Shown here piece by piece: positions 13,896-60,427 of a stretch of DNA of 64,000 bases (the first letter of the stretch is position 1; each line of letters starts with the position of its first letter). The stretch covers positions 758,294 to 822,293 of the forward strand of contig CP129477.1 of assembly GCA_030583825.1 (NCBI GenBank), in the 5' to 3' direction. The DNA is from Candidatus Dojkabacteria bacterium. GTDB lineage: Bacteria; Patescibacteriota; Dojkabacteria; GCA-002793355. Below the pieces are notes generated by a model that saw nothing but the letters and a program-made list of their open reading frames with translations, ran no database searches and had not been told where the DNA came from. Position numbers and translations under genes: made by a program.

Positions 13896-14013
13896 ATAAC
13901 CTCCAATTAGAGGGCGTCTTTGTTATATACAAACAAAACACTGACGCTCTCTTTGGAACACCTTTCGGCTCCCAACATTTTCAATCTCAATAAAAAATTT
14001 CTGGAATGAATAT

Positions 14014-27060: not shown

Positions 27061-30000
27061 TTAGATTGCTCCTCCTTGCGGCTGTGTAGGCTCTGAGTTT
27101 ACGGCTATATCACTTGTGCTAATGCTAGGTGTGCTCGCTGTTAAGTCGCTGATTGCAGATGGAACTGGTAAATCACTAACCGTTGGTGCAGATGGCGACG
27201 ATGGTGCGATATCAGGCTGTACAACTGCTTGTGGTGTGATTGTTGGAGCTGCTACCGGAGAAGCTGGCATTGCCGGAGATGAAGGCTCTGTTACTGGTGT
27301 AGATGCTACGGCAGGCGTTGAAGGGATGGTCGGTGCTGTTTCTGCCAGCTTTGGCTGTTGTGCGATAAAGCCTGAATCTGCTGCTGAAATTGTTGGCTGT
27401 GCTGCAGGTGCAATCGGCGTTGTAACCGAAGCCATTGATGGCGTTAATGGAGTTGTCGGTGTTGGTGCGGGGAATTCCATTGCTGCTGCAGGCTGTGGTG
27501 TTGATGGTTTTTTGCCTCTGCGTGACATTAATCCAATAATAAAGAGGAGAATCAGAATAACGACGACTGCTCCTACTCCACCGAGAATAAATGGAAGATC
27601 TTTGCGGTGAATGTAAATGCCGCTGATTTCAAAAATCGGTGTATTGTCTTCTCCATTGTTGATTTTTTCCTGAGCCAAGAGAATTAATGGTGCGGTGATT
27701 TCGTCAATTGGTGCGTACGCTGCTTTTGCGGCTTCCAAATCGCGAATTGCCCACTGGTAATATCCTTTTGTCAGGTTATCCAATCCTGAGGCAAATGTTG
27801 TCGAAACAGTGCTGACAGAGTTGCTAATATTTTGCTCTGCAATGAATTTTGAAAGCTCTTCGACAGAAACTCCAGCATTATAGTTTTTATCAGTGACACG
27901 TCCGGAAATTCCGTAAGTGCTGACTGCGATAACTCGACCATCGTTATTTACGATTGGCCCACCGCTGTTGCCTGGGCTGATTGTTGCATCAACTTGTACA
28001 AGCTTGAATTGGCTGTTTGCACTTGGCTTGACTGCACTGACTGTTCCTTTCGTGATTGTTGGAATTGTTGTTGCATCATCGGCGAAAAGTGTTTTGTTGT
28101 TTGCAAGTGACGGAAAACCAATTGCATAGACAGTACTTCCTTCAGTAATGGTTTGGTAATTTCCAAGCTGTAATGTTGGGTATTTGCCCTGAGGTGCGGA
28201 AATTTTTAGCAATGCGAGGTCTGGAACATTGACGGTAAACTCTTTTGTTTCTGCACTGGCATCTGCCTGTTTTGCTTTTTGCTGCTCAATGAGAAACTCG
28301 TAGTAGCTTTCAAGCTCTTTTGTTTGAACAAGCTCTGCTTTCAAATATTTAGTAGGATCTTTTGGTTTGAGTGTTGTTGCGTCAATGTCGAATGGTTCTT
28401 CTCCCTGAATATAAGACTCTTGAGAAGTTCTCTCTGCAGTGATTTTGTTTTCAACAAGACCGTAGGCAATAACATCTGATGCAACAGAAGTAATTTGTTT
28501 TTGCACGGTAGGATCGTTTAAGTCAGCGAGTGGGTATTTTGCAATATATGCTCGTGCAACATCTGTAAGAACATCTTTTGCGAAGCCTGCATCGTTACCT
28601 GCATTAAATGCATCCATTGCTGTATCGAAAGAGTTTGGTGCTGCAACATGTGCATTTGTCACAATTACTCCATCTTCGTGGACAAAGAATCCTGTGCCAA
28701 AACCTGCAGTACAAATTTGGTATGTTTTTCGTGATGCTGTTGGAAGAATATCAGGCATTGATACTTTCATGTTTGAGCAAACGCGTGCGAATACTCGAAC
28801 TGTTGCAGTTTTTCCCATAAGCGCTGCTTTTTCAATTGTAAGAGTTGAAGTCGTGGATGCTCCAAGTACTGCAGCATCGTCTGTTGTAATGCCTCCTTGT
28901 GCGAGTGTTCCGCTTCCATTTTCTGCAAGAGCTGGAATAAATGGGTTTGCAGATGTTTGATGTTCAAACTGTAATGAGCCAATAAGCGCCTCGAGATCTT
29001 TTGCTGCGAATGCCGGATCTCCTTTTTTGTCATTATCTTCCATGCGTGATACTCGAATTTGCATGGTTGATGAAGTCGCTGGAGAAAATCCTAAGTATAC
29101 CGTTCTGGTTGTTAAGTACCCTGAAGAAACATAGCTCATTGTGTAACGGATAAACTCTACTCCATTAATAGTTTGCTTTGCTTTATCTTCAAGAAGCTTA
29201 AACTCTTTGTCTTTGTAGGTTTCGCGGTCAAATTCGATATCTTTTTGCATTCGCTCTTCGAGCGCGGACATTTCTTTAAATCCACGGAAGGTTGCTGCCG
29301 AAAATCCTACTGTAATTGAGGGATTTGAGCTATTCTTGGACAAATATGCAAGCGAGAGGCTGGATTCAGTCTGTGAATTTACTGTCCACATTGTTCTGTC
29401 AAAGGAAATTGTCGCTTTTGCATCTTTAATTTGGGCAACAATATTTGCTTCAAGACCTTCTGGCTTTATTACAACAGACTTAAGAATTGCTGTGTAGTCT
29501 TGCAATACCGCGTCTGACACGACGGCTGTTCCCTGTCGTTTAATAACAATTGCTACGTCAGTATCTTTTTCTCTGCGTGTAAGGACGGTTACTTTATATT
29601 CTGTGCTTACTCCCGGCTGAGTAATTGATTCCACAAAGTAGGTAATGGTAAATGAGGTAACTCCTTCGTTTTCAACTTTTTCTGTAAGCTGAGTGCTCTT
29701 ATAAATAGAGGTGTAATAGTTTGAGTAGTATTCATAAAGATCGGCAAATCTTCCTTTGTCGGGAAGTTCCAGTGATGCATACACTTCATAATTTCCGTAT
29801 GGACTGATTAAAACGCTTCGTGAGCTGTCTGAAACAGAAAATCTATCTGCTGAGTATGTAAGAAGAAGATCTAAATTTGGAGAGTAATATTCTTTTGTTC
29901 CGCCTTCTGCGTATACAAGCTGTTTGCTTAATGCATTTTTAACATCCTGATTATCGGTGTCAACAACGATTGTTCCATCTGCGCTTCGCTGTGTAGATAG

Positions 30001-30339
30001 AAGATTTGATTGAACAATGACAGCGATCGGAATTCCAATTGCCGCAAGAAGTAAAATTGCGACAAAAAGCTTTGGTAAAGCTCCTGCAAGGGGGCTTCGT
30101 GAAGCCGAAACTTTCGATGTTGGTGTGTACTTATTTTTTGAGTCTGTAGGCAATGGAGGAAGTGCTCCCGCCATTGATGCGGTTGCGGGCTGAACAGGAG
30201 AAGCAGCTGGAGTTGACGGCATTGTTGCTGCAGGCTGTGTGACTACTGGTACTGGAGCAGGATTAGCTGGCGTAACAGGTGTCGTCGGCGCTGCCGGTGA
30301 ACTACCTGGAAGTGGCGGTAATGTCGTATTCTGCTCCAT
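27061..30339 (-). CDS. membrane-anchored HtrA/DegP-like (S1, trypsin-fold) serine protease with Pro-rich N- and C-terminal tails
   Basis: 1092 aa. Architecture is Pro/Thr-rich N-tail with two LPPLP motifs, TM1, a ~900-aa external region, TM2 (FILGGVGAVVVILILLFIIGLM followed by RRGKK) and a Pro/Ala/Thr-rich C-tail. The protease core shows catalytic His TNAHV and the Ser motif GNSGGP. Confidence 0.75.
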   Translation of the reverse strand: MEQNTTLPPLPGSSPAAPTTPVTPANPAPVPVVTQPAATMPSTPAASPVQPATASMAGALPPLPTDSKNKYTPTSKVSASRSPLAGALPKLFVAILLLAAIGIPIAVIVQSNLLSTQRSADGTIVVDTDNQDVKNALSKQLVYAEGGTKEYYSPNLDLLLTYSADRFSVSDSSRSVLISPYGNYEVYASLELPDKGRFADLYEYYSNYYTSIYKSTQLTEKVENEGVTSFTITYFVESITQPGVSTEYKVTVLTRREKDTDVAIVIKRQGTAVVSDAVLQDYTAILKSVVIKPEGLEANIVAQIKDAKATISFDRTMWTVNSQTESSLSLAYLSKNSSNPSITVGFSAATFRGFKEMSALEERMQKDIEFDRETYKDKEFKLLEDKAKQTINGVEFIRYTMSYVSSGYLTTRTVYLGFSPATSSTMQIRVSRMEDNDKKGDPAFAAKDLEALIGSLQFEHQTSANPFIPALAENGSGTLAQGGITTDDAAVLGASTTSTLTIEKAALMGKTATVRVFARVCSNMKVSMPDILPTASRKTYQICTAGFGTGFFVHEDGVIVTNAHVAAPNSFDTAMDAFNAGNDAGFAKDVLTDVARAYIAKYPLADLNDPTVQKQITSVASDVIAYGLVENKITAERTSQESYIQGEEPFDIDATTLKPKDPTKYLKAELVQTKELESYYEFLIEQQKAKQADASAETKEFTVNVPDLALLKISAPQGKYPTLQLGNYQTITEGSTVYAIGFPSLANNKTLFADDATTIPTITKGTVSAVKPSANSQFKLVQVDATISPGNSGGPIVNNDGRVIAVSTYGISGRVTDKNYNAGVSVEELSKFIAEQNISNSVSTVSTTFASGLDNLTKGYYQWAIRDLEAAKAAYAPIDEITAPLILLAQEKINNGEDNTPIFEISGIYIHRKDLPFILGGVGAVVVILILLFIIGLMSRRGKKPSTPQPAAAMEFPAPTPTTPLTPSMASVTTPIAPAAQPTISAADSGFIAQQPKLAETAPTIPSTPAVASTPVTEPSSPAMPASPVAAPTITPQAVVQPDIAPSSPSAPTVSDLPVPSAISDLTASTPSISTSDIAVNSEPTQPQGGAI

Positions 30340-34004: not shown

Positions 34005-36689
34005 CTACGCTTCCACGACCTTTGCCTCAGTGACTTCTCCTCCGCAGAGTGATGTCACAAGCGTGGTAAGCTCCTGCAATGCTTTTTCAATAGCAGAGCT
34101 TTCAATTCCTGGATAGCCATCAATAAAAAGAATGACATTTTCAGTATCGTTCGTTATTTTTGTTCGATCTGAATCACGATAGTTCAAATTCAGGCAAATC
34201 ACACCCTTTTGGTCAGCATAGACAAGAGATCCACTTTTTGCAGTCTCCGGTTCGCTTTCGCCGATTTTATACATAGTTTCATTGTCAGCGGCATAACGAA
34301 GCGTTATTGGTTTTGAAACTGTGTCGTAGTCGTATGCAGCCATTGGAAGTCCAAGCTCGATTGACTTGATATTGTAAGAATCAACAAGGTTATTCACGTT
34401 ATACAAGTCTTTGCCTGCAACAATTCTGCGAATCAATGCCTCTGCACTATTTAACGTGCTGTCAGGGTCTGCTCCGAATGCTTTGTACATATCCCGAATT
34501 TGAGAGATACTCGCAATTTTCTTAACTTCTGCAGGAGTTGAGTACTGTCCTCGAACTTTTGCTGTAATTTCGTCTCGAAATGTAGTAAATATTTCACTTT
34601 TCAAGTGAGAGCCTTTTTCGATTTTGATATTTTTTACAACTGCGTATCCAACTTTAAATCCTGGAAAGTTTTGGGAAACAGCAGGATCAATTTGCAATAC
34701 TGTCCCACTTTTAGGCGAGTCAGATAACGAAGAGGAACTATCTTTTCCTGGTTGTTCTGGTATAGCGCTATTTTTAAAGACAAACTCCTGCCCTTCCTTT
34801 CCGGTATACTTTTCTGGATCCAGAATCATAATGCCTTCTGCATCGGTGCCGAGACTAAGTTCTTTTGCGGAACAAAGCATTCCTTCTGATTTAACTCCAC
34901 GCATATTGCGATGAGTAATCACCAGAGCATTGCCATCTTTGCCTTTCATTGTTTCGATCTTTGCACCTTCCAAAGCAACAGGAACATAATCTCCTACGCG
35001 AATATTGTGGGCTCCGGTAATAATTTGTAGCACGTTTGGAAATGTCGTACCTGATGGTTTTGATCGCTTTACATTCACTTTTGTTACTAACAATTTGTCA
35101 GCATTTGGGTGCATTGCAATCTCGACGATTTGGCCAACAACAAAGCGTGATTCTGGCATTGTATTGGTTTCTGTAAACAATTCCGGGTAAATTTCTTTTG
35201 TAATTTCTTCGGTCTCATGGCGCATCTGCGGGAAGATTGTTCCTTCTCGTGCGGTAATGTCTTCAAAAAACCAGAAAATTCTTTCACTGTGGCCATACCC
35301 ACATGTTGGAGGCATGCCATATTCAAGCATTTCGCAAAAGTCTACATCAAGCATTTGTGCTTCGTCGTCGCCAGAATCACGAAGGCTCTGCTGGTCAAGA
35401 AAGCTTTGCAACTGATCCAACGGATCGTTCTTTTCTGAATAGCCATTACCAAGTTCGCTTCCCGCAAGAATGACATGAAAACGCTCTGTAACCAATGGAT
35501 TATCGGGTTTTGCTTTTGCAAGCGGTGACATAAACATTGGCTCATTAATCAAAAATGCCGGGCCGGAGAGTGTTTTTCGAATAAGTTTCCACAAATTGTC
35601 AATCATTCTGTTGCGGTTTACGTGGCCACTGGAAAGGTCAACCCCTTCTTTTTCGATAACTTTTGCAATTTTTTCATCCGAGTCGGCAAAGATATCAACG
35701 TCGAAGCGCTCTTTAATGATGCCGGCATAGTCAATTGTTTGCCATTCGTCTGCGAGATCAAAGCTGTGTCCTCGAGTTGAAAACTTCGTGGTTCCGTATA
35801 CTTCATTTGCGACATAGCGGAACATTTCCTTTGTTAGTTGCATTCCTTCGTTATAGTCGGCATATGCCCAATACCACTCAAGCTGGTAGTATTCCTGCAA
35901 GTGCTCGTCGCTGATCCCTTCGTTTCGGAAGTTTGGAGCAAGTGTGTAAATTTTCTCGTATCCTGCGCCAATTAAGCGTTTTTGATACAGCTCTGTGGAG
36001 ATTCTCAAGAAAAAGTCTTGGTCTAAATCGTTGTGATGAGTAATAAATGGTCGAGCGTCTGCTCCACCGGTAACGTGCTCAAGTACCGGAGTTTCCACTT
36101 CTATAAAGCCATTCATTTTCATAAACTCACGGTTTGCTGCCCAGAATTTTGCTTTTCGTTCAAATCGCTCTTTTATTCCCGGAGTGACCATAATGTCCAA
36201 ATAGCGGCGCCGAAACCGTTGTTCTTTGTCCAGAAGTTTCCGTGGCGCTGGTCGTAAGGATTTTGTAAGAAGCACAATGCCTGTCACTAGAAGGGATACC
36301 TCTCCACGTTGGGTTTTTGTAACAGTTCCTGTCGCCTGAATAAAGTCACCATCGTCTAAAAGTTCAAGCTCTTCCCATCCGAGAATGCTTTTTGACAAAT
36401 CACTTTTGATTGTGTCGTCTTTTATGTAAAGCTGGATTTTGCCAGTTTGGTCGGTTAAGTCCATAAATACAATTTTGCCGTGATCGCGTCTGGAAGTAAT
36501 ACGTCCTGCAAGGGTAACGGTTTTTTCTGCGTGTGTTTCGTAGTGTTCGGTAATTTCTGCCTGAGAATATTCTTTTACAGATCGTGCGGGAAATGGATCA
36601 ATGCCAAGTGACTTCAACTTCTTCAGCTTGAGCATACGTTCATTGCGTTGGCCGATAAGAGAGCTGGTCAGTTCTACACTGTCTGACAT
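34005..36689 (-). CDS. lysS: lysyl-tRNA synthetase (class II) fused to C-terminal tRNA-binding (EMAP/Trbp111-like) and B3/4-like domains
   Basis: 894 aa. N-terminal OB anticodon-binding domain plus class II core (FRNEGISDEHLQEYYQLEWY, GYGHSERIFWF). Residues about 520-640 carry MHPNADKLLV...GMLCSAKELSLG, typical of the tRNA_bind OB domain. The remainder resembles the PheT B3/4 domain. Confidence 0.85.
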   Translation of the reverse strand: MSDSVELTSSLIGQRNERMLKLKKLKSLGIDPFPARSVKEYSQAEITEHYETHAEKTVTLAGRITSRRDHGKIVFMDLTDQTGKIQLYIKDDTIKSDLSKSILGWEELELLDDGDFIQATGTVTKTQRGEVSLLVTGIVLLTKSLRPAPRKLLDKEQRFRRRYLDIMVTPGIKERFERKAKFWAANREFMKMNGFIEVETPVLEHVTGGADARPFITHHNDLDQDFFLRISTELYQKRLIGAGYEKIYTLAPNFRNEGISDEHLQEYYQLEWYWAYADYNEGMQLTKEMFRYVANEVYGTTKFSTRGHSFDLADEWQTIDYAGIIKERFDVDIFADSDEKIAKVIEKEGVDLSSGHVNRNRMIDNLWKLIRKTLSGPAFLINEPMFMSPLAKAKPDNPLVTERFHVILAGSELGNGYSEKNDPLDQLQSFLDQQSLRDSGDDEAQMLDVDFCEMLEYGMPPTCGYGHSERIFWFFEDITAREGTIFPQMRHETEEITKEIYPELFTETNTMPESRFVVGQIVEIAMHPNADKLLVTKVNVKRSKPSGTTFPNVLQIITGAHNIRVGDYVPVALEGAKIETMKGKDGNALVITHRNMRGVKSEGMLCSAKELSLGTDAEGIMILDPEKYTGKEGQEFVFKNSAIPEQPGKDSSSSLSDSPKSGTVLQIDPAVSQNFPGFKVGYAVVKNIKIEKGSHLKSEIFTTFRDEITAKVRGQYSTPAEVKKIASISQIRDMYKAFGADPDSTLNSAEALIRRIVAGKDLYNVNNLVDSYNIKSIELGLPMAAYDYDTVSKPITLRYAADNETMYKIGESEPETAKSGSLVYADQKGVICLNLNYRDSDRTKITNDTENVILFIDGYPGIESSAIEKALQELTTLVTSLCGGEVTEAKVVEA

Positions 36690-36997
36690 GACATGATCAA
36701 ATAAAGTTAGTAAGAGGCTGTTTTGAGTAATATTACAGCACTGTGTATTTTACCCGAATTTGGGACAAAAACGCAATGTCTCTTATAAACTCTCGACAAA
36801 CGCGCTATAAATTGATTTCGACCCCCAAATATTGTATAATATAGTGTATTTTCACACAGTTTTTGAGAGAATACTTTTCGTGCCTCAAGGCACATTAAAA
36901 ATGGGGGAAACAATATACAACGCGTATCTTTCGTGATTTGTCATGCTCATGTGTCGCAGCAATTGTGAGCCATGGGAATCGAGCTCGTATAAGGCGC

Positions 36998-37028
36998 TTG
37001 ACAAATACTATAAGATATGTAATAATAT
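36998..37028 (+). promoter_or_regulatory. consensus sigma70 promoter (TTGACA-17-AATAAT/TAATAT), copy 1
   Basis: TTGACAAATACTATAAGATATGTAATAATATACTGTAC. A near-identical copy lies 191 nt downstream. Confidence 0.5.
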
Positions 37029-37188
37029 ACTGTACTTCAACAGAGATCTGGTCTTCTCAAATTATCCGAGAAGATGTCGTTTCCGGTATTTTGCCCCTTA
37101 AAAATATACCGTACTACTACTCTGCTTGCTTGTAAGAATCCCTCAAAGAAATGTTAAAACGCAATGCTTTTATTGCATATAAAAGTCA

Positions 37189-37219
37189 TTGACAAATACT
37201 ACAGGATATGTAATAATAT
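37189..37219 (+). promoter_or_regulatory. consensus sigma70 promoter, copy 2 (TTGACAAATACTACAGGATATGTAATAATATACTGTAC)
   Basis: 38 of 40 nt identical to copy 1. Followed by short hairpins (AATCTTC/GAAGATT and CAACC-GCAA-GGTTG) and then leader repeat A. Confidence 0.5.
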
Positions 37220-37368
37220 ACTGTACCTCAAAAGGAAAGAGAAAGAAGAGAAGAATCTTCAAAAAGAAGATTGATCTGTTCTTTTTCGCAAGAAAATGAA
37301 CGAACTTTGAAACCGGTATTTCAACTTAAGAGTCAACCGCAAGGTTGCGAATAAGATTGAAAACCAAT

Positions 37369-37546
37369 GGCTTCTGGGAAGTGAAAGTTGAACAAGCTGA
37401 TGTCAGAAAGCTTAGAGGGTTTTCGAAAGAGAACTTTGTAAGCTTTCTGGCTGATGCTAGACTGAAACGGAATCGCGTAAGCGAAACCTCATCCTCTTGT
37501 AGGATGGTAATACCCCTGTCCAATTTTTCACTAAGGAGATTTCAAA
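37369..37546 (+). repeat. leader repeat A: ~180-nt promoter/5'-UTR module ending in the RBS AAGGAG, 7 nt before the ATG of the 296-aa gene
   Basis: Over 98% identical to 38654-38833. Contains the 11-bp stem CAGAAAGCTTA/TAAGCTTTCTG with a 24-nt loop, flanked by the direct repeats GCTGATGT/GCTGATGC. A second hairpin CATCCT-cttgt-AGGATG precedes the RBS. Confidence 0.7.
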
Positions 37547-38437
37547 ATGTCAAATCGTGGTTGTGGTTCTATGCTTCTGGTAGGTGCGGTTATCCTGCTT
37601 CTCATCGGCGTGGCAATCTGGTTCGTTCCGTCCTTGTCAAACGTTCGTGAAAGCATCGAAACGGCAGTCATCGAGTCCCAAGCGCAAGTTCTTGACCCGG
37701 CTGTGGGTGGCGTATCGCAAGATATTGCTTCCGTTACACTGAATGGTCAGCAGTACGCAATAACGGGACTAACCATGATTGTCAGTGATCGCTCTCAATG
37801 CCGACCTGCGGATGCGTCTGTACCCTGCGTTGTCGTCCCACAGTGCTTCTCTGGTTGCTCTGCCAGCTTTGTCAACATTCGTGTGGACTCGGCAGATGAC
37901 CTTATGTACTTAGACGGGAATCTGGTTACAACATTCGACGCAACGGTTGATGCCCTCTTTTATGACGTGCCTGATGGGGAATACACCCTGCGTGTCCAAA
38001 ACACAATAGCTCGGTGGTATAACCTCTACATCATGCCTCGTTTCGAGGGTGCTACGGCGCAGGGTCTTCCAACTCAGGAATCAACTCAGAACGCTCCCGC
38101 AGTGGTGACCCCTTCTTCTGTTACTATTGATGGTCGCGCCATTCTGCTGGAAACCGAACTGAAGCTGGTTCGCGCTCAGACAGATTGTGGTGAACACGCA
38201 AACTGCGTTGTTGCTCCAACGTGCTTCGCTCAGACAGGTTGTATTGTCGAGGTCGTTACCCCATTGTTGTTTACTTCAGTAGACGCGAGTGCAACACTCA
38301 ATAACAATGGGAACATCACCACCTACACATTCGACCAACTGAAAGATGCCGCGTTTGCAAACATTGCCGCAGGTCGCTACACCCTCACAATCTCACACCC
38401 CACCGCAGGGAATGCTTTTTTCGACATCGCACGCTGA
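37547..38437 (+). CDS. secreted or membrane-anchored protein with two internal Cys-containing repeat domains (296 aa), GC-rich
   Basis: N-terminal TM/signal MLLVGAVILLLIGVAIWFV. Two roughly 110-aa repeats, each with C-x7/5-C-VVxPxCF-x3-GC and G(E/R)YTL(R/T). Local GC about 52% against about 37% in the flanks. Confidence 0.55.
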   Translation: MSNRGCGSMLLVGAVILLLIGVAIWFVPSLSNVRESIETAVIESQAQVLDPAVGGVSQDIASVTLNGQQYAITGLTMIVSDRSQCRPADASVPCVVVPQCFSGCSASFVNIRVDSADDLMYLDGNLVTTFDATVDALFYDVPDGEYTLRVQNTIARWYNLYIMPRFEGATAQGLPTQESTQNAPAVVTPSSVTIDGRAILLETELKLVRAQTDCGEHANCVVAPTCFAQTGCIVEVVTPLLFTSVDASATLNNNGNITTYTFDQLKDAAFANIAAGRYTLTISHPTAGNAFFDIAR

Positions 38438-38590
38438 CCAACGTTCCCCCCACCTTATCCACCCCCAGAAGCCCCCCAAACCCCTAGAGAAAAATTGAAC
38501 ACTTCGGTGTTATACAATCAATTTCTCTAGGGGTGCTTCGCTTTTCCTGCTTTCTTAAGAAAGAAGGTAGAAAAAACGAAGTTTGAATAT
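38438..38590 (+). terminator. 3' trailer A: long imperfect hairpin CTAGAGAAA...AACAC-TTCG-GTGTT...TTTCTCTAG, then conserved hairpin GCTTCG...CTTTCTTAAGAAAG...CGAAG and TTTGAA
   Basis: Inverted repeats seen directly. The second hairpin is almost identical in trailer B, while the first is structurally conserved but sequence-diverged. Confidence 0.45.
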
Positions 38591-38653
38591 CGCACCTTAA
38601 AATAGTTTATATGTATTAAAGTCAGCTTTATTGCTGCAAAATATGTATGAACA

Positions 38654-38833
38654 AAGCTTCTGGGAAGTGAAAGATGAACAAGCTGATGTCAGAAAGCTTA
38701 GAGGGTTTTCGAAAGAGAACTTTGTAAGCTTTCTGGCTGATGCTAGACTGAAACGGGATCGCGTAAGCGAAACCTCATCCTCTTGTAGGATGGTAATACC
38801 CCTGTCCAATTTTTCACATAAGGAGATTTCAAA
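38654..38833 (+). repeat. leader repeat B, upstream of the 152-aa gene
   Basis: Differs from repeat A at only 3 positions (T/A, A/G and a 1-nt indel). Ends in the same RBS-ATG spacing. Confidence 0.7.
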
Positions 38834-39292
38834 ATGGCTACATCTGGTAAATCCGCAGGTAAGGCAACACGCAGAGAAAGTAAGCCGAACATCATTGTAA
38901 CCGTGCTGTTTTTCATCTGGTGTGCAATCACGCTTATCGGCACGTTCAGCATCGTTTTTGGTGGCGGCATTGCTACTTCTACTGGTGACTGGGTGGCACG
39001 GTTGTTTTTCACGGCAATCTTCTGGGTTGTTATGGCAGTACTGTTTTTCGCTCTTGACTGGATTCCTGATCAGGAATTCGATTTTGCGAAACGCGGTCTT
39101 GGTGCTGTGCTGAACCCCCGCAAGGACGACGAAGATGATACTGAAGAAGACGATGAAGAACCTGTGCGCTCTGTAAAACCCGATGCGTCTAAACGCCCTG
39201 CTCCCACTTCGCGCCGTACCGTCGTTAAACCCGTCACTCCCCCTGCTCCTCCCAAAACCGACGACGATGACGACGAACCTGTTTTAATCTGA
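38834..39292 (+). CDS. small membrane protein (152 aa; two TM helices) with acidic/Pro-rich C-terminal tail, GC-rich
   Basis: IIVTVLFFIWCAITLIGTF and AIFWVVMAVLFFALDWI, followed by the tail DDEDDTEEDDEE...PPAPPKTDDDDDEP. Confidence 0.5.
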   Translation: MATSGKSAGKATRRESKPNIIVTVLFFIWCAITLIGTFSIVFGGGIATSTGDWVARLFFTAIFWVVMAVLFFALDWIPDQEFDFAKRGLGAVLNPRKDDEDDTEEDDEEPVRSVKPDASKRPAPTSRRTVVKPVTPPAPPKTDDDDDEPVLI

Positions 39293-39448
39293 CCAGCGTT
39301 CCCTCCACCCTCCCCTCCCCCAGAAGCCCCCCCTCCCTAGAATAAATGTTCACCGAAAGGTGTATTTACAAAACATTTATTTCTAGGGAAGGGCTTCGCT
39401 TTTCCTGCTTTCTTAAGTAAGAAGGTAGAAAAAACGAAGTTTGAACTT
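39293..39448 (+). terminator. 3' trailer B (CTAGAATAAATGTT-CACC-GAAA-GGTG...AACATTTATTTCTAG, then the conserved GCTTCG...CGAAG hairpin)
   Basis: Same two-hairpin architecture as trailer A. The sequence starts with CCAGCGTTCCCTCCACC against CCAACGTTCCCCCCACC in trailer A. Confidence 0.45.
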
Positions 39449-39486
39449 TAAAAATCTGGCCTTATAGACGAATGAATTGCCAGGTT

Positions 39487-39521
39487 GGCTTAGAGGGTTT
39501 TAAAAAAGAACCTTGTGAGCC
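39487..39521 (+). repeat. degenerate third copy of the leader core (GGCTTAGAGGGTTTTAAAAAAGAACCTTGTGAGCC)
   Basis: Matches the loop/stem core GCTTAGAGGGTTTTCGAAAGAGAACTTTGTAAGC of leaders A and B. Followed by a TAAGGAG RBS and the 124-aa gene. Confidence 0.4.
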
Positions 39522-39572
39522 ACTCTGGCACCTATTGTTCACGCAAGTCTACGCTCTATAAGGAGAAACACA

Positions 39573-39947
39573 ATGGCTAACCAATTAGTCGGTTCAGGTT
39601 CAGCAAAGTTTGAAGGCGATGTTCCTCAGGTAACGGTCTCCAGCGCAATCGAAGATTACCATACCCAACTCACCACGCTCCTCAACAATCTCGTCTGGGG
39701 TAAAGGTATCAGCGCGGTCACGTTGCAGAATGGGGACTACATGCGCCTGCGGCTTCAGAATGGTACGACAACAGATTACTACAAACGTTCTGATGGCACG
39801 GGTTACTTCCCTATTAAGGATGGTGTCTTGACACTCGAAATGCTTCCCGCGATTCGCTTCATGGAAAGTTTCATTAAGGGTAAAGTCACCGTCGCCGAAC
39901 TCAAAACCTATACCGTCATCGTTGAAATCTACCGCAAAACCGCCTGA
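39573..39947 (+). CDS. hypothetical protein (124 aa), GC-rich
   Basis: ORF with TAAGGAG RBS 8 nt upstream. No TM and no motif. Confidence 0.45.
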   Translation: MANQLVGSGSAKFEGDVPQVTVSSAIEDYHTQLTTLLNNLVWGKGISAVTLQNGDYMRLRLQNGTTTDYYKRSDGTGYFPIKDGVLTLEMLPAIRFMESFIKGKVTVAELKTYTVIVEIYRKTA

Positions 39948-40225
39948 CCTAAACCGCATCACCCTCCTCTTCGCCATTGTCTTCCTGGAAGAAGCTCTTC
40001 AACTTATATCTTGCCCTCGCGCAGAATACTTTGAATCTTCTTCCAGCCAGACAACCCTTTTATACACTCAAAATCACAATAAAAATCATACGTACACAAA
40101 TCATTCATTCGTTACGTATTGTCATTACTATTTTTAGAAAGTTAAAAAGTGAGAAACCAGAAGAAGGTGCATGTTTACATGACGCGGATCTTCTCCTGGT
40201 TGCTCTTTATGTTCATCTGAATCTG

Positions 40226-40978
40226 TCAGGGCCAGTTTGGAATTCTTTCGGCGTACACCTCTAAAGCGCATGATCGCCCATTATTTGATAGACTGTTTCT
40301 ATCAGTAATGTAGCTAAGCACGCCAACCACGATATACGTTCCTCTTTTGACCACAGGGCCACCGCTATTTCCTTTACAAATAACTCCGTTTGTTCCATCA
40401 GTTTCAATTCGCAGTGACTCATCACTTGTGACAGTCAACTGGTATTGTAGCCACTGTTCAGTGACAATATCGGGAATTTCAACTGCGGAGACGTTTCTTG
40501 TCGAGTATTGCAGAGTGTATGCGAGAACTTCACCGTCACGAATCGCTTGTGCGATTTGTGTTTGCTCGGCGGATGTTGGAGAATACCAACCAAATGGGTC
40601 TCTCGTGCGCGTATCCGCAAAGGAAATCGAATTTAAGTCCAGCACGAAAAGCAATTCAGTGTTTGGTACCCATGCAAATATGATAGACTCGGGGTTACGC
40701 GGATTCTCTTCATCCCATCTCATGGAATACAACACATGGTGGACTGAACCAAGAAAATACCCGCCGTTGTATTCAAAGATAAATCCACTTCCCCGTGCAT
40801 AGCAACTCCATAAAACTACTGTACCTGACACAAAGTCTGGTGCAGTTTTGTCTACGGGGAGGATATCATACGGTAAGTCGCCGGGAATACAGTATGTTTG
40901 CGCCTTCGCGGGATTCAGATTACCAAAGAGCGAGAAAAAAACGAAAACTGCGATAAAAACGTGAGCTACGTGTTTCAT
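40226..40978 (-). CDS. secreted trypsin-fold (S1) serine protease
   Basis: Start at ATG 40978 (MKHVAHVFIAVFVFFSLFGNLNPAKAQ, a signal peptide) with a GGAG RBS. Catalytic Ser motif CKGNSGGPVV near the C-terminus. His in GSVHHV. Confidence 0.65.
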   Translation of the reverse strand: MKHVAHVFIAVFVFFSLFGNLNPAKAQTYCIPGDLPYDILPVDKTAPDFVSGTVVLWSCYARGSGFIFEYNGGYFLGSVHHVLYSMRWDEENPRNPESIIFAWVPNTELLFVLDLNSISFADTRTRDPFGWYSPTSAEQTQIAQAIRDGEVLAYTLQYSTRNVSAVEIPDIVTEQWLQYQLTVTSDESLRIETDGTNGVICKGNSGGPVVKRGTYIVVGVLSYITDRNSLSNNGRSCALEVYAERIPNWP

Positions 40979-41143
40979 GAGGTTATCTCCGTATATGTAC
41001 AAAGTTCGAATATGTATTATATCATACTATAGGTCTTCTATACACTCCCCTATCCACTATCTCTCCTCTTGCCACATCCCCATACAAACGCTACTATCTT
41101 GTAATACATATTTTTGGTTCGCGTAACTTAATTCGCATACATA

Positions 41144-51718: not shown

Positions 51719-51765
51719 TGTAGGAAATTATATCCTACTCTCCACTGTTTGTCTTGATGGTAGAT

Positions 51766-51990
51766 CTATGACTTAGCGGCCACAGAGTGAAGAAGACGTC
51801 CATAACCGGCAATAACAATACCGATACCATAAACGACTGCTCCAAAAATACCGATAGTATCAAAGTTGTAGCTTGTTTCCTCAGGTGTAATGTACGGACT
51901 TGTTCCCCCGGCTGCATTAACAATAGCTGGAGAAGAGGCAACCATCATCACAACACCAAGAAAAATAGCTATAAGAACTATTTTTTTCAT
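51766..51990 (-). CDS. small membrane/secreted protein (75 aa), paralog of 52231..52461
   Basis: Start at MKKIVLIAI (51990), preceded by a GAGAAAGAGGAAT RBS. N-terminal hydrophobic helix, then GGTSPYITPEETSYNFD, then a second Gly-rich hydrophobic helix. Confidence 0.45.
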   Translation of the reverse strand: MKKIVLIAIFLGVVMMVASSPAIVNAAGGTSPYITPEETSYNFDTIGIFGAVVYGIGIVIAGYGRLLHSVAAKS

Positions 51991-52230
51991 ATTCCTCTTT
52001 CTCAATATTAATTTTACAGAATATTATACTATAGGATTGTATTACTGTCAAGGTGGTACCTACCCTCTTTAGGGTCTATGTACTGAGGGCAATACTTTGC
52101 AACTTGATGAGCAAGAATATAATAAACTGTAAGCTTTAAACGAAAAGAAGGTACAAAAGTAACAGAGATCTATGAGTTTCGAAGTGAGAAATTTCCCAAT
52201 AGTGGGAAGATTTGAATATGGAAAGAAGAA

Positions 52231-52461
52231 TTACTTCTCTGCGTATTTGTTCGAAATGATTTTACCGGCGGTATAAAACAGAATTCCACCGAACCATACG
52301 ACACCGCCGACAATAAAAAGCATATCAAAGTTAATGCTGGTATCTTCTGGATCAACATATGGGCTCCCTGTTGCTGCAATTTTCGGAATTGAAAGAAAAA
52401 GAGTCATCGCAAAATATGCGACGATTGCACTTGCTATGAGGAACAGTTTTTTAGTATTCAT
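52231..52461 (-). CDS. small membrane/secreted protein (76 aa), paralog of 51766..51990
   Basis: Same layout: MNTKKLFLIASAIVAYFAMTLFLSIPKIAATGSPYVDPEDTSINFD, then a Gly-rich helix. Confidence 0.45.
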   Translation of the reverse strand: MNTKKLFLIASAIVAYFAMTLFLSIPKIAATGSPYVDPEDTSINFDMLFIVGGVVWFGGILFYTAGKIISNKYAEK

Positions 52462-52538
52462 GTTTCTATGAATAGGCAGTAATTTACGTTACGAACATGC
52501 TAATACAAATTTTTTGAAAATGCAAATAATAAGGCTCT

Positions 52539-52796
52539 TTAAAGAATACCTAATAATTTTGCGATAAAGCTGAGTGTACTTTCTGTTGGAATGCCGAGAG
52601 CATTAAATATCCATAACGTTGTTAAAGTTATAACCCAAAGGAATATTGTCTTTATGTATAGTTCGTACTTTACCCACCATGTCTCCTGGTACTTAACAAA
52701 GTCAGTTATTGCGGATCTATATTTTTCCGTAATAGTGTATGTGTCATTGGCCCACTCTTTCATAAGTAGGACGATATCGCGCTCGCTTTGTGTCAT
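52539..52796 (-). CDS. small membrane protein (85 aa), hypothetical
   Basis: ORF with a C-terminal hydrophobic helix. Weak support. Confidence 0.3.
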   Translation of the reverse strand: MTQSERDIVLLMKEWANDTYTITEKYRSAITDFVKYQETWWVKYELYIKTIFLWVITLTTLWIFNALGIPTESTLSFIAKLLGIL

Positions 52797-53092
52797 TATA
52801 AATTTCTCTAATGATGAGATTTTTTAGCTAGTTGTGGGTAACGTCTGTCAATTTCTCTATTTGCTTTACGAAACTCGCGGATTGCAATTTTGAGCATATC
52901 AATAATGACTTGTGATCCGTCTATTTCTCCAGAAGGAGTTTTTGGCACTTTATAGTTTGCCATGTCTTGACAAGAAATCAAATTATATACTCAAGTATAG
53001 CGATTCTGAACGCACATTTCAAACGAAAATGTCGGAACTTGGTAAGAACTTTAGCTATTATAAATTGGGAAAAGTGATCGGTAAACTAAACT

Positions 53093-53791
53093 CTAGCGAG
53101 CGTATCCTGAGTTAGTTCTGTCGGCAAAAATGACAATACGAATAGGAGACTTCAAATATTTACATGTGTACAAGATCATATCTGTATTTGCGGGGTTAAT
53201 AAGAGTGACTTCTTCTACTCTGCGGACAACGTACTCAAACTTACGCTGATTCCAAATGACTGTGAAAGTATCTCCAGGCTTTAGCTTTGGCAAGTTAAAA
53301 AATGAATTTGTTTTTCTGAATTCATTTGTCCATTCAATATATCCGAATCGGTGGGCTGCGAGCACTGTTGGCTTTGTGAAATCTTCGGGATTTCCCCAAT
53401 CAGGAGTTCTCCACATTCCTCGATATAATGCTCTTTTACTGTCCTGTCCTTCGTGAATCGGCCCATTTACCCCAATACTTGGAATAAGTAGTGTATTTGT
53501 TTTAGGTAAATTTGGATCAACTGGCGGTAATATTGGCTCTGCAGGAGTTGGAGTAGGTGTTACAGGTATATTTGACGGTGTTGGCGTTGGAGTTGCGGCC
53601 GCAACGGTGGAAATAGTCAATGTAGCAATTTCGTCTTCAGTGGCATCGGGATTTATCGAGTAGTAAATGTAAGGAAACGCCGGAATCAATACAAAAATAA
53701 GGCCAAGTGCAACGAACACTGCTCCGATTGCTGTGTAAATACGTCCAATTTGCGACAGAAACTGCTGTCTTTCGTTCTGGTAATACTGCAT
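53093..53791 (-). CDS. sortase family transpeptidase
   Basis: 232 aa. N-terminal TM anchor, TPTPTPS...TPTPTPAEP linker, LLIPSIGVNGPIHEG, conserved His in VLAAHRFGY, catalytic Cys in the TLxTC-like MILYTCKY, and a downstream Arg. Confidence 0.8.
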   Translation of the reverse strand: MQYYQNERQQFLSQIGRIYTAIGAVFVALGLIFVLIPAFPYIYYSINPDATEDEIATLTISTVAAATPTPTPSNIPVTPTPTPAEPILPPVDPNLPKTNTLLIPSIGVNGPIHEGQDSKRALYRGMWRTPDWGNPEDFTKPTVLAAHRFGYIEWTNEFRKTNSFFNLPKLKPGDTFTVIWNQRKFEYVVRRVEEVTLINPANTDMILYTCKYLKSPIRIVIFADRTNSGYAR

Positions 53792-53882
53792 ATCTTAATT
53801 ATACTACACATTATATTGTCATCTTCGATTTTCAAATATGAGGTTGCGAGAAAAAAAATAATTCACTATACTGTTCCTGAGC

Positions 53883-55517
53883 ATGGCTTTCACAATATTA
53901 AAAATCAATAAAGAGAAAACTGTTATTTGGGGAAAGCGCCTTACCTTCGTGGTAATCTTGCTATTATCTCTTTTTGGAATCTGGGGAGCTGTCTTCACTT
54001 ATCAAGAATCACTAACCGCTTGGGATGATATTCATACCTGGAAAAATCCAACAGTTATGTATAAAGATTTAGGTAATGAATCAAAGAATACATTAACAGT
54101 AGATGAAGAATCTCAGACAATTCAATACGACATCGAATATTGTGCTTTGTACCAGGTCACTATATCGGCAGACAATATCGAATATAACTGTTCTTATCTC
54201 CCCTACACATATTTAAAAGATTTCGCATTTGATAAAGTCACTAATACGGTATCAGGAGCTCCTATAGGGAAAGATTTCTCTTTTACATATCCACGTAATA
54301 CTGAAAACGCAGTATTTCCTGAAAGCTACCTAAGCCAACCAGTGTTAAATGAAGATTCATTTGCTTCAGATATCGGGAGCGCCGCTGTTCCTGTGAAGTT
54401 TACCGCAGATTTTCGATATGAAAAGCCGGATAAGAACCTATTTTCACTTATAAATCACTACTTTAAATATAGAACGGGAAATTTTTCTGAACTTCGCACA
54501 ACACTACTCTCTTGGTCTATTGAAAATTATGAAATACCACAACAGCCAGATCAGATGTCAGCGTCTGATAGAGATAAAGTTTTAAAAGAATGGGCAGATA
54601 AAGCCTTAGCAGATATTGAAAAATTCTATGGAATAGAAGGAGACATTGCAATGGCGGACTTCTCTGTGAAAGATGTGTTAAACAAGATCAAGAAAAATGA
54701 TGTTGTTTGTAAACTAAATTCCTTATCGAATAACGCAGAATGCTCAACTAAAGATGTTTCATATACAGATACAACTTTAATGCTGTATATGTATGCAAAG
54801 GCATATTCAGATCCAGGAATTGCAGAGAAAATTGCGACAGCAATAAAAGGCACGTACTTTCCTTTTACCGTTACTCGTGATGAAGAAGGAGCAATTGTAA
54901 ATGAACGTATTTCTTTTTCTGGATATCCACTATGCCCTATTATTGAAATTGAACGTGGACGCTTAAATCATGCTAATGTCTCTTTTGCTCGCGAGTATTA
55001 TAATCGAGTGGGATCATGGGTTTCTCATGCTCCACAATTGGTGTCAATTAATATTATAAACAGCGGAGAGAACAATTTATCAACCGTTTTTGTAAATAAT
55101 CCAGCAGCACGTGCGGTAGATACAGTGTGTGTAGACTTTCTGACAAAAAACGAGAAATTAACTGAATCGTATAGATTTGATGCATTATCGAGCGAAGATG
55201 ATAAAAGTGAATTTCATTCGCTTATGTTGTTGCGTTATCTGACATTATTCAAAGAAGGCAAAACGACTGTAAACATTTCTGACAATCATTTGAATTTTGC
55301 TGCTTATCCAACGGATGAATGGAAACAGCTTGCTGCTGAAGATCTTTTTATAAGTACTTTTTTGCATCCCTATAAGTATAACTTTCTGAGTCAACCATAT
55401 ACTTCTCAAGTTGTTGAAACAAATCAAAACTCTGTTGATAATTTAGTAGAATATGTTAAAACAGGAAATGTAGGTCTCACCTTATTAGTTATCTATTCTA
55501 TCTATGCATCGCTCTAA
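53883..55517 (+). CDS. N-terminally TM-anchored extracytoplasmic protein (544 aa), module A partner
   Basis: TM LTFVVILLLSLFGIWGAVF, then W-x-D...WKNP and SQTIQY...YC.LYQVT...YNC motifs shared with the 58926 paralog. Hydrophobic C-terminal 15 aa. Confidence 0.55.
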   Translation: MAFTILKINKEKTVIWGKRLTFVVILLLSLFGIWGAVFTYQESLTAWDDIHTWKNPTVMYKDLGNESKNTLTVDEESQTIQYDIEYCALYQVTISADNIEYNCSYLPYTYLKDFAFDKVTNTVSGAPIGKDFSFTYPRNTENAVFPESYLSQPVLNEDSFASDIGSAAVPVKFTADFRYEKPDKNLFSLINHYFKYRTGNFSELRTTLLSWSIENYEIPQQPDQMSASDRDKVLKEWADKALADIEKFYGIEGDIAMADFSVKDVLNKIKKNDVVCKLNSLSNNAECSTKDVSYTDTTLMLYMYAKAYSDPGIAEKIATAIKGTYFPFTVTRDEEGAIVNERISFSGYPLCPIIEIERGRLNHANVSFAREYYNRVGSWVSHAPQLVSINIINSGENNLSTVFVNNPAARAVDTVCVDFLTKNEKLTESYRFDALSSEDDKSEFHSLMLLRYLTLFKEGKTTVNISDNHLNFAAYPTDEWKQLAAEDLFISTFLHPYKYNFLSQPYTSQVVETNQNSVDNLVEYVKTGNVGLTLLVIYSIYASL

Positions 55518-58500
55518 ATATTTAAAAATCTTTATCACGGCACTCTTCGTATGTTTTTCTCTATTTATTAGTATTCCTTCGGTAGAAGCTCAATATACAA
55601 ACTTATGTGGATCAGGTATTGGAGGAAGTTTTTATGGTTGTTCAGCCAACTGTAGTACATCCGGCCAGTCTTGCTCGGGCCCATATGTAGGAAGGTATGT
55701 CTGTAATGGACGTCATAATGAATGTGGTGGCGGTGGAGCGACTCCTTTTAGCCAGCAGGAAATTACTAACGGTACTCTTTATATGAATGCGGCATGTGGA
55801 CAAACAGTGCAGTTGGATGTATGGAGCGATAGATTTTATGGAAACTTAACAGGGTATATGGTCTATTATGGTGGTGATTGTACAGTAACAACTCCTCCAC
55901 CGACTCAGTCTCCTCCTCCGCCTATTTGTACATCCTGTTCCTCATATAATAACTGTCAATCGGGCACGCCTCCTTCAAAGTTTAGGCAGACACCTCAAAA
56001 TTACAGCGGTAGCTGGAGAACTTGTTATAACGGTCAGACATGTGGTTCTTCTAGTCCGTGTAATTGTCCTTCTACCGGTGGTAACTGTTATTGGACTCAT
56101 TACTATAACTCTGCGCCATCCTGCTCTATTTCTCTCGATAGAACAAGCGTAACTCGTGAAGATGCACCAATAAATATGAGATTGACTGTCTCTGACGCGG
56201 ACTATGGTGACACAGTTGAAATTACTGGATTTGAAGTTTCAAACTACTGTGCCCAAATCAGAACACAAGGTGGTACTTCTCTCTCAAACGGTATTGTCGT
56301 TAAGTTAGGATCTGATAGTCCTGGCTACACAACTCAGGTGAATAATTTTGTTCTTAACCAACAACTCGCGCACGGAGTGTTCAACTATATAGGAGGAACT
56401 TCCCTATGTCAGGCAACAGTAACAATACAAATTACAGATAGAGTCGGTGATTCAGGAGATTCTCAAGCTACACGAACATGTAGTGCTTCTTTTAGCGTGA
56501 CAAACCATGCTCCTTACCTTGTGAGCGCAGAAATGATAGATAGAGACCCTGTTACTTCACTACGACGACAAACAAACCTTGTTGATGGTATTAATGGTTC
56601 TCCTCCAACTGTTTGGGTCTCATCTCAAAGTTTTGATCAAAGACCTGCACAGTGTAATGCTTCAGTAGATCTTAATGGGAACCCTATTACAGATTGTAAC
56701 CCTAAAACGCCAATCAGAACGAAATCAAATCCATTCGAATTAGGCTTTACGGTCAATGATAATAACGGAAGCAAAGATATCAATTATGCAGGGGTATGGA
56801 TCCAACGAGTAGATATTCCTAACGGTGCAGTCGCTCCAGTTTATCCGCCAGTTGCGTCCTCAGTTCGACGAAGCTTAGCATTCTTTTATTCTGATTATAA
56901 CGATAGGTTTATCGGTTCTGGAAATCATTGGATTACTCGTGCAGACTTTAATACCAATTTAGTAACAGGAACTAATCGTCTTGCGGGTATGCGACTTGGT
57001 GGCGGTGGAATTGGAAACTCTTCGTCGCCTTATCGTTCAAGCTTATATAGAGAATGGCAAACGGTAGGATTTCCTGACTGTTATGATTCATCCGCGTCTT
57101 GTAATAGTTCGAATATTCCAACTAACAGCCGAAACTTTTTTAATGGAACACTTGCGGATTACCATAACTACTTGTGGGATGTTGTTGCAACAAGCAATAA
57201 CTACATATGTTATGACAACTCAATGTATCCACGTATTTCATCTAGCTGTGATAATTCATGCGCTGCATGTGTACGAAGATCACAAACGAATTCTGTTCTT
57301 CAAATGGGCCCAAATGCGATTCGATTTGGGTTTGAATTGCAAATAAATGAGCAAATGGCTGAGGGACGGTACGCTATTTTGCTTATGGCAGATGATAAAG
57401 TCGGTGCGACACTAAACAATGGCCCGCAATGGGGATCCTTTACTCGTAGAGGAGTCTACTGCTCAAATTGTGGTGCTGATCAGTTTATTATGGGTATAGA
57501 TAAAACGCCTCCAACCTACACTACCCGCTTCCGCGAAGGTATCGGAGATGAAATTTATGCAGACGTTGCGAATATTGCAGACAATCTTTCGGGTTATGCC
57601 GGATTGTATAGAATCATTTATTACAAGCAGGATCCAACCGGTCAACGGGCATTCTTGACAAATGCAGCAGGAAATTGTCAGTACAATGGACAGCAAAACT
57701 GTTACACAGGTGCAACTCCACAAAGTGGCTTTACATTTGTCGGTTACGGTGTGCGAGGTGCGGATATTGTGCACTCTTATGTATGTCTCTACGACGTCGC
57801 AGGAAACGGTGGATGTCGCCTTGATGACATGAATCCAGCGTTTGTTGCTCAGGATAACTGGATGAAAACGTCAATGGGCTCAATATATAGCAATACAAGT
57901 GCGCTAAGTACTTCAGCATTTCAGATTCAAGTTCCGGCAAACCCTCCAAACGTAGATATTGCTCAAACACTAGCAGCAGACTTACTGTATGCACCATTTA
58001 CTGACCAGAGAAATACTGTTGTTTCTGGGGCATATGTATCTGCAGCAAGCGCTCCTGGTGTGTCTGGAGGAAATAGCAATAGGCAGGGAGGAACTGGCGG
58101 AGATTATCGTCAGCTCTCGGCTACAAACAGACTTAATGTTACTGGAATTATTGACAACTCAGGAACACGATACGGTACTGGTGGTTGGTATGCTCGAATG
58201 CTGTCGTTAGCTAACTATAATTGTCCAATTTTGAAAGCACGAGGAACAGTCACACCTGCAGGGCTTAATAGTCAGTGTCAGGAATTTACCAGCGGTAACT
58301 TAGTGGCTTTGGATCAGATGGAAAACCCATCGGTGCAAAATAAAATGATTACACTTAACCTTCCAACAGGAAGCAGAACTCGTACAACGCGCGATTATAC
58401 ATGTTCGAGAAATAACATCATTTTTGTTGCATCAGGTCACTTGGAATGGACTCGTCAGTTGCGTAAAACCACTTCAACAGGGATATCAAGCACATGTGTC

Positions 58501-58857: not shown

Positions 58858-58925
58858 CGCTAATCCCTAGTTTCTTTTGACAGTGAAAGGTTGACGTAGG
58901 CGTTTTTTTTAGGCATTATTATGGT

Positions 58926-60425: not shown

Positions 60426-60427
60426 GT

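Follow-up and report, generated by a model that had tools for sequence, protein, structure and literature searches.

The early operon of phage T7 has three tandem promoters (A1, A2 and A3) and an RNase III hairpin before each gene, RNase III being an enzyme that requires about two helical turns of double-stranded RNA. Here we describe a chromosomal locus of 3.5 kb with a comparable layout, found in a stretch of 64,000 nucleotides (hereafter the window) of a Candidatus Dojkabacteria metagenome-assembled chromosome (assembly GCA_030583825.1, contig CP129477.1, positions 758,294 to 822,293). The locus lies between lysS and a gene for a trypsin-like protease, and consists of three near-consensus promoters and three unrelated genes. 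Each of these genes is set in the same untranslated frame: a leader hairpin of 21-22 bp, the ribosome-binding site (RBS) AAGGAG, the coding sequence, TGACC with a C-rich tract, a long hairpin, and a second hairpin. We propose, with a probability of about 0.5, that the locus is a lineage-specific three-gene operon, probably expressed at a very high level, and that its untranslated modules work at the level of the RNA.

By analogy, the T7 early operon may be the closest functional counterpart of this locus. Both have three stacked strong sigma-70 promoters ahead of unrelated small genes, a hairpin of about two turns with an internal mismatch before each gene, and stable 3' hairpins for each message. 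Unlike the T7 operon, our locus is carried by a chromosome and not by a phage, and the two have no sequence or protein similarity. Moreover, the T7 sites contain a large internal loop, whereas the hairpins of the locus are near-perfect stems closed by a tetraloop, whose cleavage is predicted.

Two further kinds of element resemble parts of the locus. Rho-loading (rut) sites are C-rich and G-poor, and the locus has unstructured, C-rich and G-poor tracts of about 45 nt that run from the stop codon and are followed by possible pause or 3'-end hairpins, as in Rho-dependent terminators. Rut sites are not, however, repeated as conserved modules with paired hairpins, and the action of Rho at the locus is putative. 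The Bacillus thuringiensis cry genes and the 5' stem-loop stabiliser of ompA share with it tandem promoters, a structured 5' untranslated region (UTR) and a strong 3' stem-loop, and frame an abundantly made, lineage-specific protein, as we propose by analogy for the locus; they are single genes, whereas here the same modules surround three different cistrons. The locus is a new, locus-specific instance of these known kinds of UTR elements.

Results

Stacked promoters precede the genes

All coordinates are positions in the window, on the plus strand unless stated otherwise. An earlier note, made from the sequence alone, had claimed two tandem promoters of the form TTGACA-17-AATAAT at 36998 and 37189, and both are present. 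The first, P1 (36998..37043), is a near-consensus sigma-70 unit (TTGACA-17-TGtAATAAT), and P2 (37189..37234) is its duplicate, 91% identical over 46 nt; each has a TG-extended -10 box and matches 11 of 12 consensus positions. Their common 38-nt pattern is present at these two sites only, with 0 occurrences expected by chance. To this pair we add a third, weaker promoter-like copy, P0 (TTGATT-17-TATAAT, 36812..36840), which is 61% identical to the P1 unit. The spacing of the copies is similar, with 186 nt between P0 and P1 and 191 nt between P1 and P2.

About 10-15 nt past the expected start site of P2 lies a stable stem-loop (37239..37287; -22.5 kcal/mol, z -4.9) that belongs to the top 30 local folds of the window and is a candidate 5'-terminal stabiliser. 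A promoter scan gave no convincing promoter between the genes.

Three leaders share an exceptionally stable hairpin

Leader 1 (37370..37546) comprises a first hairpin that we call H1 (here H1a, 37404-37449), a second, H2, with a GUAA loop (37469-37488), a third, H3 (37489-37507), and the RBS AAGGAG (37533-37538). In leader 2 (38656..38833), H1b lies at 38690-38735 and the RBS at 38820-38825. Between 37370-37549 and 38656-38836 the two are 98.3% identical over 181 nt, with two substitutions and one indel, which bears out the earlier description of a block of about 180 nt ending in AAGGAG before the 296-aa gene and a near-identical copy of it before the 152-aa gene. The degenerate core that had been noticed before the 124-aa gene is also there: leader 3, whose RBS AAGGAG lies at 39560..39565, has 43 nt in common with the other leaders at 81% identity, and cannot be aligned with them outside H1. 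The core sequence GCTTAGAGGGTTTT begins at 37410, 38696 and 39488, three copies against 0.01 expected. A small hairpin immediately before the repeat block did not reach significance.

Of special interest is H1 itself. The earlier note had drawn an 11-bp stem with a 24-nt loop; the structure is instead a 21-bp stem, interrupted by one G-G mismatch and closed by a GAAA tetraloop (H1a, -31.4 kcal/mol). Its counterpart in leader 3, H1c (39478..39530), retains the inner core of H1a and H1b, while its outer stem has a different sequence that is nonetheless paired, so that 22 pairs are kept (-32.0 kcal/mol). In a folding scan of all 60-nt stretches of the window, both strands included, the three H1 hairpins were the three most stable (-31.4, -31.4 and -32.0 kcal/mol, H1c being the first; mean -8.6, standard deviation 3.8), and five further hairpins of the 3.5-kb locus were among the top 30. 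H1 stands 85 nt upstream of the RBS in leaders 1 and 2 and 30 nt upstream in leader 3. With 21 bp in H1a and H1b and 22 bp in H1c, located in a 5' UTR or between cistrons, these stems have the length (about 20 bp or more) and the position of RNase III sites.

ATG-started mini-ORFs (open reading frames) cross H1 in one common frame in all three leaders (37400-37441, 38686-38727, 39472-39561). Their product in leaders 1 and 2 is MSESLEGFRKRTL, directly followed by the stop; the mini-ORF of leader 3 has 29 codons, contains GLEGFKKEP, and its stop codon overlaps the RBS. None of them has an RBS of its own, and they are probably a by-product of the conserved core. An antisense ORF of 65-70 aa inside the leaders was rejected as a gene, as it has no RBS and exists solely through the repeat.

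C-rich tracts and paired hairpins follow the stop codons

Directly after the stop codon of gene 1 (TGACC...) lies a C-rich, G-poor tract (38438..38482; C 58%, G 7%), followed by a long hairpin, T1a (38481..38533; CCCCUAGAG...CUCUAGGGG, UUCG tip, z -6.5), and by a second hairpin, T2a (38536..38581; z -4.2). Gene 2 is followed by a tract of the same kind (39293..39337; C 67%, G 9%), by T1b (39335..39389; GAAA tip, z -6.7) and by T2b (39394..39439). The arrangement of a long hairpin and then an almost identical second hairpin after genes 1 and 2, as proposed in the earlier note, is confirmed, T2a and T2b being about 98% identical. That note had also described the first trailer hairpin as conserved in structure and diverged in sequence, and indeed T1b has the architecture of T1a and folds equally well although most positions differ. 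An alignment of trailer 1 (38438-38587) with trailer 2 (39293-39445) gives 79% identity and contains indels.

Gene 3, whose trailer (39948..40054) had gone unmentioned, also has TGACC, a C-rich tract and a long hairpin of 78 nt (39977-40054, z -6.5) past its stop codon, and the frame is hence repeated three times. This trailer is an analogue of the other two and has no sequence homology to them. Further downstream, a hairpin between the convergent gene 3 and trypsin-like gene (40151..40205, z -4.2), with a U-run after it on the minus strand, is the probable common end of both transcripts.

Among all 45-mers on both strands of the window, ranked by C-minus-G skew, the tract after gene 2 comes first, that after gene 1 second and that after gene 3 sixth. 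The tracts stay unpaired in the folds, and their C-rich, G-poor and unstructured character past a stop codon is that of Rho-terminator tracts. Intrinsic termination is not indicated at the trailer stems: T2 is followed by UUUGAA and has no U-tract, and a terminator scan gave no site at the T1 and T2 stems proper. The possibility that the C-tracts mimic the anti-Shine-Dalgarno sequence was rejected, with duplex energies to the three translation start regions no better than those of shuffled sequences.

The three genes are unrelated orphans

Genes 1 to 3 are identical to QY314_03630, QY314_03635 and QY314_03640 of the Candidatus Dojkabacteria chromosome, whose contig measures 1,090,595 bp. Gene 1 (37547..38437) encodes a protein of 296 aa that has one transmembrane helix at its N-terminus and, internally, two Cys-rich repeats, which match each other at 31% identity (E 4e-9). 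We take it to be a real gene, because this internal similarity is preserved at the protein level. Gene 2 (38834..39292) encodes a 152-aa protein with two transmembrane segments and an acidic Pro-rich tail. The product of gene 3 (39573..39947, 124 aa) has no hydrophobic segment and is soluble; its AlphaFold model is of moderate quality and gave no fold match. The three products had been described as secreted or membrane proteins, and this holds for the two with hydrophobic segments and fails for the 124-aa protein. A comparison bore out that the three coding regions and their proteins are mutually unrelated, and they have no common signal peptide.

All three proteins are orphans. In word-indexed searches of 5.8 billion sequences, each protein retrieved nothing but itself, and a full phmmer search against 1.84 billion representatives yielded two more matches, both marginal (E ~1e-4), to beta-sandwich repeats of surface proteins. 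There was no match above cut-offs in Pfam, PHROGs or NCBIfam.

Codon usage and translation signals set the genes apart

The GC content of the three genes is 8-10 points above the window mean and 4-9 points above the flanking genes, which is less than the 15 points over the flanks given in the earlier note; only at the third codon position is the excess of that order (.47-.56 against ~.34 in the rest of the window, 13-22 points higher). The underlying claim that the genes are compositionally atypical for the genome is supported, and it extends to codon usage. Compared with the other 35 genes of the window, the three genes prefer GGT (.67 against.23) and nearly lack GGA (.03 against.47), and have more CGY (.81 against.38), ATC (.57 against.19), TAC (.80 against.43), CTG (.31 against.08) and GAA (.88 against.72). 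Every NNC codon of the two-fold families is raised. This shift, which avoids A-ending codons and favours NNC and GGT, is the usual signature of translational selection, and it is not a simple GC enrichment; several of the codon shifts go towards T or A.

Translation signals differ in the same genes. Among the 38 long ORFs of the window, an AAGGAG placed 7-8 nt before the ATG is confined to these three. Most other genes have no RBS or Shine-Dalgarno sequence at all, and 12 of the 38, none of them in the locus, show a leaderless pattern, with a TATAAT-like -10 box that ends 4-13 nt before the start codon. Example starts from this survey of Shine-Dalgarno-less and leaderless genes are 450, 2127, 9611 (minus strand), 42090, 50963 (minus strand) and 53093 (minus strand). 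This pattern suggests widespread leaderless mRNAs in this Dojkabacteria genome.

The repeated frame looks selected as RNA

Where the units are compared, their homology sets in right at the stop codon and breaks off right at the start codon. H1a, H1b, H2, T1a and T1b all end in a GNRA or UUCG tetraloop. Loops of these types are preferred in RNA and are meaningless in a DNA recombination site, which is why the leader and trailer structures look selected at the level of RNA rather than DNA. The outer stem of H1c and the T1 pair, which keep their structure in spite of differing sequence, point the same way. With one or two independent comparisons, this evidence is supportive and not conclusive.

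The repeats also carry traces of their history. Just upstream of 37370 and 38656, the identity of the two copies drops from 98% to about 50%, and the trailers, apart from T2, are 79-90% identical. This pattern fits an older duplication of the whole frame and, after it, a recent gene conversion that made leaders 1 and 2 uniform over 180 nt, as far as the ATG.

Searches gave no copy of the modules outside the locus

An exact-pattern scan with the leader core found no match in 185,579 species genomes, the JGI metagenomes or IMG/VR. The trailer pattern had no match in IMG/VR, and its single match in the metagenomes was inspected and dismissed as chance. Low-stringency blastn searches with the promoter, the sequence before the leader, the leader and the trailer returned no copy outside the locus, either in the window, in about 13 kb of additional flank, or at the corresponding loci of relatives. 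Phage and plasmid collections were likewise without a match. In the two nearest available genomes (65% LysRS identity), the region upstream of lysS is unrelated.

These results bear on the proposal, made in the earlier note, of a cassette-like expression platform. Its descriptive part, a shared leader and trailer around unrelated genes behind duplicated strong promoters, is supported. The platform itself is not: across the window, its 13-kb flank, the relatives, the species genomes, the metagenomes, IMG/VR, phages and plasmids, the modules were found nowhere else, and related genomes yielded no case of the same leader or trailer with other genes, the outcome that the note had itself named as speaking against a platform. 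Repetitive extragenic palindromic sequences (REP), bacterial interspersed mosaic elements (BIME) and miniature inverted-repeat transposable elements (MITE) do not describe the repeats either, as there are no terminal inverted repeats and no copy outside the locus in the 64 kb and the flank of about 13 kb.

Discussion

A predicted operon with processing and stability modules

Rather than forming a mobile cassette platform, the repeated modules are probably locus-specific signals through which the mRNAs are processed and stabilised for very high expression. Transcription would start at the stacked near-consensus promoters P0, P1 and P2 and run through all three genes; we read the locus as a single operon because there is no convincing promoter between the genes and T2 has no U-tract. 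H1 would serve as a processing site of the RNase III type, specific for double strands, and/or as a 5' stabiliser. Cleavage at H1 would release each cistron as an mRNA of its own that is stable and translated well, as happens in the early operon of T7. At the other end, the C-rich, G-poor tract may act like a Rho-loading site, with the two hairpins as barriers to 3' exonucleases or as partial terminators. The modules would have spread within the locus by the older duplication and the later gene conversion of leaders 1 and 2, and after the duplication T1, the C-tracts and leader 3 would have diverged in sequence with their structure kept.

Several points weigh against this operon model. Weak -35/-10-like pairs after T2 (TTGAAT-17-TTTATA and TTGAAC-16-TATAGA) make internal promoters possible. 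The codon bias and the use of an RBS could instead stem from a foreign origin. With two or three copies only, the covariation evidence amounts to one or two independent comparisons, and recency alone can account for a 180-nt repeat that is 98% identical. Finally, we infer co-transcription, cleavage at H1, the involvement of Rho, a high expression level and likewise termination at the trailers from features of the DNA, and RNase III and Rho are putative as the enzymes that act here.

Alternative explanations

The leader might be a cis-regulatory RNA: an operator to which a protein, possibly a product of one of the three genes, binds to control translation, or a mask over the RBS that is opened by a signal such as temperature or a ligand. 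H1 with its G-G mismatch recurs in every leader, although leader 3 is otherwise unalignable, and the minimum-energy folds of all three pair the RBS with sequence 5' of H1, by CUUCU:AGGAG in leaders 1 and 2 and by a perfect 8-bp pairing, CCUUAUAG:CUAUAAGG, in leader 3. The masking is marked in leader 2, where the unpaired probability of the RBS is 0.04 against 0.47 in shuffled sequences (2% tail), but it is no better than in shuffles in leader 1 (0.47 against 0.44) and weakly better in leader 3 (20% tail); relative to the other 35 genes, the accessibility of the RBS is ordinary. The thermosensor suggested in the earlier note is thus not supported as a feature of all copies, sequestration standing out from shuffled leaders in leader 2 alone. 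Its other suggestion, a riboswitch or known cis-regulator, fares no better: Rfam 15 gave no gathering-score match in the whole window and, between 36700 and 40200 with E up to 10, only chance-level matches with E at least 0.15. A plain, near-perfect hairpin of 21 bp is also unlike a multi-helix, ligand-binding aptamer, and this explanation leaves the repeated trailers unaccounted for. We consider it unlikely.

A second possibility, to which we also give a low probability, is that the 3.5-kb block recently entered the genome from a foreign source, be it a phage, a plasmid or a host bacterium, and keeps the signals and codons of its donor, the repeats being donor features without a particular function here. 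The third-position GC, a codon usage and mode of translation initiation different from those of the other 35 genes, the lack of synteny with the two nearest available relatives, and the orphan status of all three proteins point in this direction. Against it, we found no similarity to phage or plasmid records, IMG/VR or PHROGs, and neither an integrase nor a tRNA gene nor a flanking direct repeat accompanies the block. Its promoters belong to the sigma-70 type, as do others in the window, and the codon shift includes GAA and GGT, changes away from GC that fit translational selection. A foreign insertion would not by itself explain what the modules do; it concerns the origin of the block and is compatible with the other explanations.

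Thirdly, the leaders and trailers may be homology arms, through which unequal crossing-over or gene conversion deletes, swaps or moves genes behind one promoter block and so varies the surface proteins. Logan contigs assembled from several sequencing runs match the window at 100% identity and mostly end at the leader boundaries, as a two-copy repeat predicts; one of them (L001) has the plain leader-1 haplotype. One contig stands out (L022, run DRR859400, positions 1-1451). In it, window positions 36610-37549 are fused to 38656-39346, such that lysS, P0-P2 and the leader lead directly into gene 2, and gene 1 with trailer 1, exactly 1286 bp, is missing. The switch from the leader-1 to the leader-2 allele falls within an identical stretch of 83 nt that holds H1. 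This is the exact product of a leader-by-leader recombination, and in another sample a contig (L023, run SRR24948962, positions 1-999) has a mixed leader haplotype. Both may be either real recombinants or gene-conversion variants, or chimeras of the k=31 assembly graph in low-coverage samples; they are short, the repeat is longer than the assembler k of 31, and the other contigs examined do not bridge it.

Published precedents for such a mechanism are the upstream and downstream homology sequences (UHS/DHS) of Borrelia hermsii (PMC6011951) and the vpma genes of Mycoplasma agalactiae with Xer1 (PMC2268961). As in vpma/vsp and in the Vmp UHS/DHS system, the locus has near-identical sequence up to the start codons, homology downstream that begins exactly at the stop codon, a single promoter block, here for three genes, and membrane or surface proteins, here two of the three products. 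Those systems, however, have a gene family or silent archive and a dedicated recombinase, whereas the genes of the locus are not a family and have no signal peptide in common, no recombinase is adjacent, and the collections searched hold no archive of further genes flanked by these leaders and trailers. All copies are direct repeats, and recombination between them would give an irreversible deletion only, unlike the inversion or conversion of the vpma and Borrelia systems. The contig that lacks gene 1 is a hint that the repeats may be recombination substrates; we regard homology arms as an unlikely explanation.

It is also conceivable, though we think it unlikely, that the modules serve two purposes, as an RBS-dependent high-output channel for a few orphan envelope proteins and, at the level of DNA and by virtue of their near-identity, as sites for the deletion or exchange of cistrons behind a fixed promoter block. 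If this were true, the contig that lacks gene 1 would be a real deletion variant, and the locus a simple cassette-style system of surface variation in the Candidate Phyla Radiation (CPR), set in the reduced genome of an episymbiont whose mRNAs are otherwise mostly Shine-Dalgarno-less and of the leaderless type.

An integron-like cassette array with attC-type recombination hairpins, suggested by the row of promoterless genes behind a common promoter and the imperfect palindromes that follow two of them, is effectively refuted: direct reading of the sequence found no RYYYAAC or GTTRRRY core sites flanking the T1 and T2 palindromes, which leaves the earlier idea of trailing recombination sites unsupported; no integron integrase is adjacent, as had been stated, the only tyrosine recombinase of the window (8065-9441) being of the XerC/D type and 28 kb away (XerC model 183 bits, integron-integrase model 55 bits against a cut-off of 265); and where integrons have intI and attC cores, this locus has neither, but has conserved leaders without counterpart in integrons and hairpins that look selected as RNA, with RNA-type tetraloops at their tips.

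Genomic setting

The rest of the window is ordinary chromosome, with genes for RuvA and RuvB, the XerC/D-type recombinase, a second class II aminoacyl-tRNA synthetase, glycosyltransferases, and a long LysRS. No tRNA gene was found in the 64 kb. The LysRS gene (34005-36689, minus strand) encodes 894 aa, with the tRNA-binding and B3/4 domains fused at the C-terminus; the LysRS of the nearest relatives has 511 aa in one (L009) and 704 aa with a different C-terminal extension in the other (L006). On the other side of the locus, the 258-aa trypsin-like protease (40226-41002, minus strand) lies directly downstream and is transcribed towards gene 3, with which it has the terminal hairpin at 40151-40205 in common. 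A second gene for a trypsin-like serine protease is found at 27061-30339 (minus strand).

Elsewhere in the window (53093-63805), a sortase gene that the annotation assigns to Pfam Sortase (53093-53791, minus strand) faces four large genes, with products of 544, 1117, 499 and 1125 aa. The 544- and 499-aa products had no match in a Pfam scan, and the annotation gives no Pfam family for any of the four. Together these genes may make up a cluster for surface proteins or a pilus that depends on the sortase. No ORF of at least 120 aa is found in two stretches of about 1.4 kb (12560-14013 and 51719-53092); the first contains two hairpins that rank among the most stable of the window (13471-13530, minus strand, and 13901-13960, plus strand), and the second a promoter that matches the consensus perfectly (12 of 12 positions) at 52051 on the minus strand.

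Significance

The value of the finding is local: as the elements are not conserved in other available sequence, they represent neither a new widespread RNA family nor a new mobile system. Almost nothing is known in CPR bacteria about the control of expression or about which proteins are made in bulk for life on a host cell. The signals of the locus, namely stacked promoters, structured leaders, perfect RBS, optimised codons and elaborate 3' ends, set three orphans, two of them membrane proteins, apart in this genome. If our reading of the locus is right, these proteins would be concrete targets for metatranscriptomics and metaproteomics, and the locus would provide a compact natural example of the reuse of untranslated-region modules.

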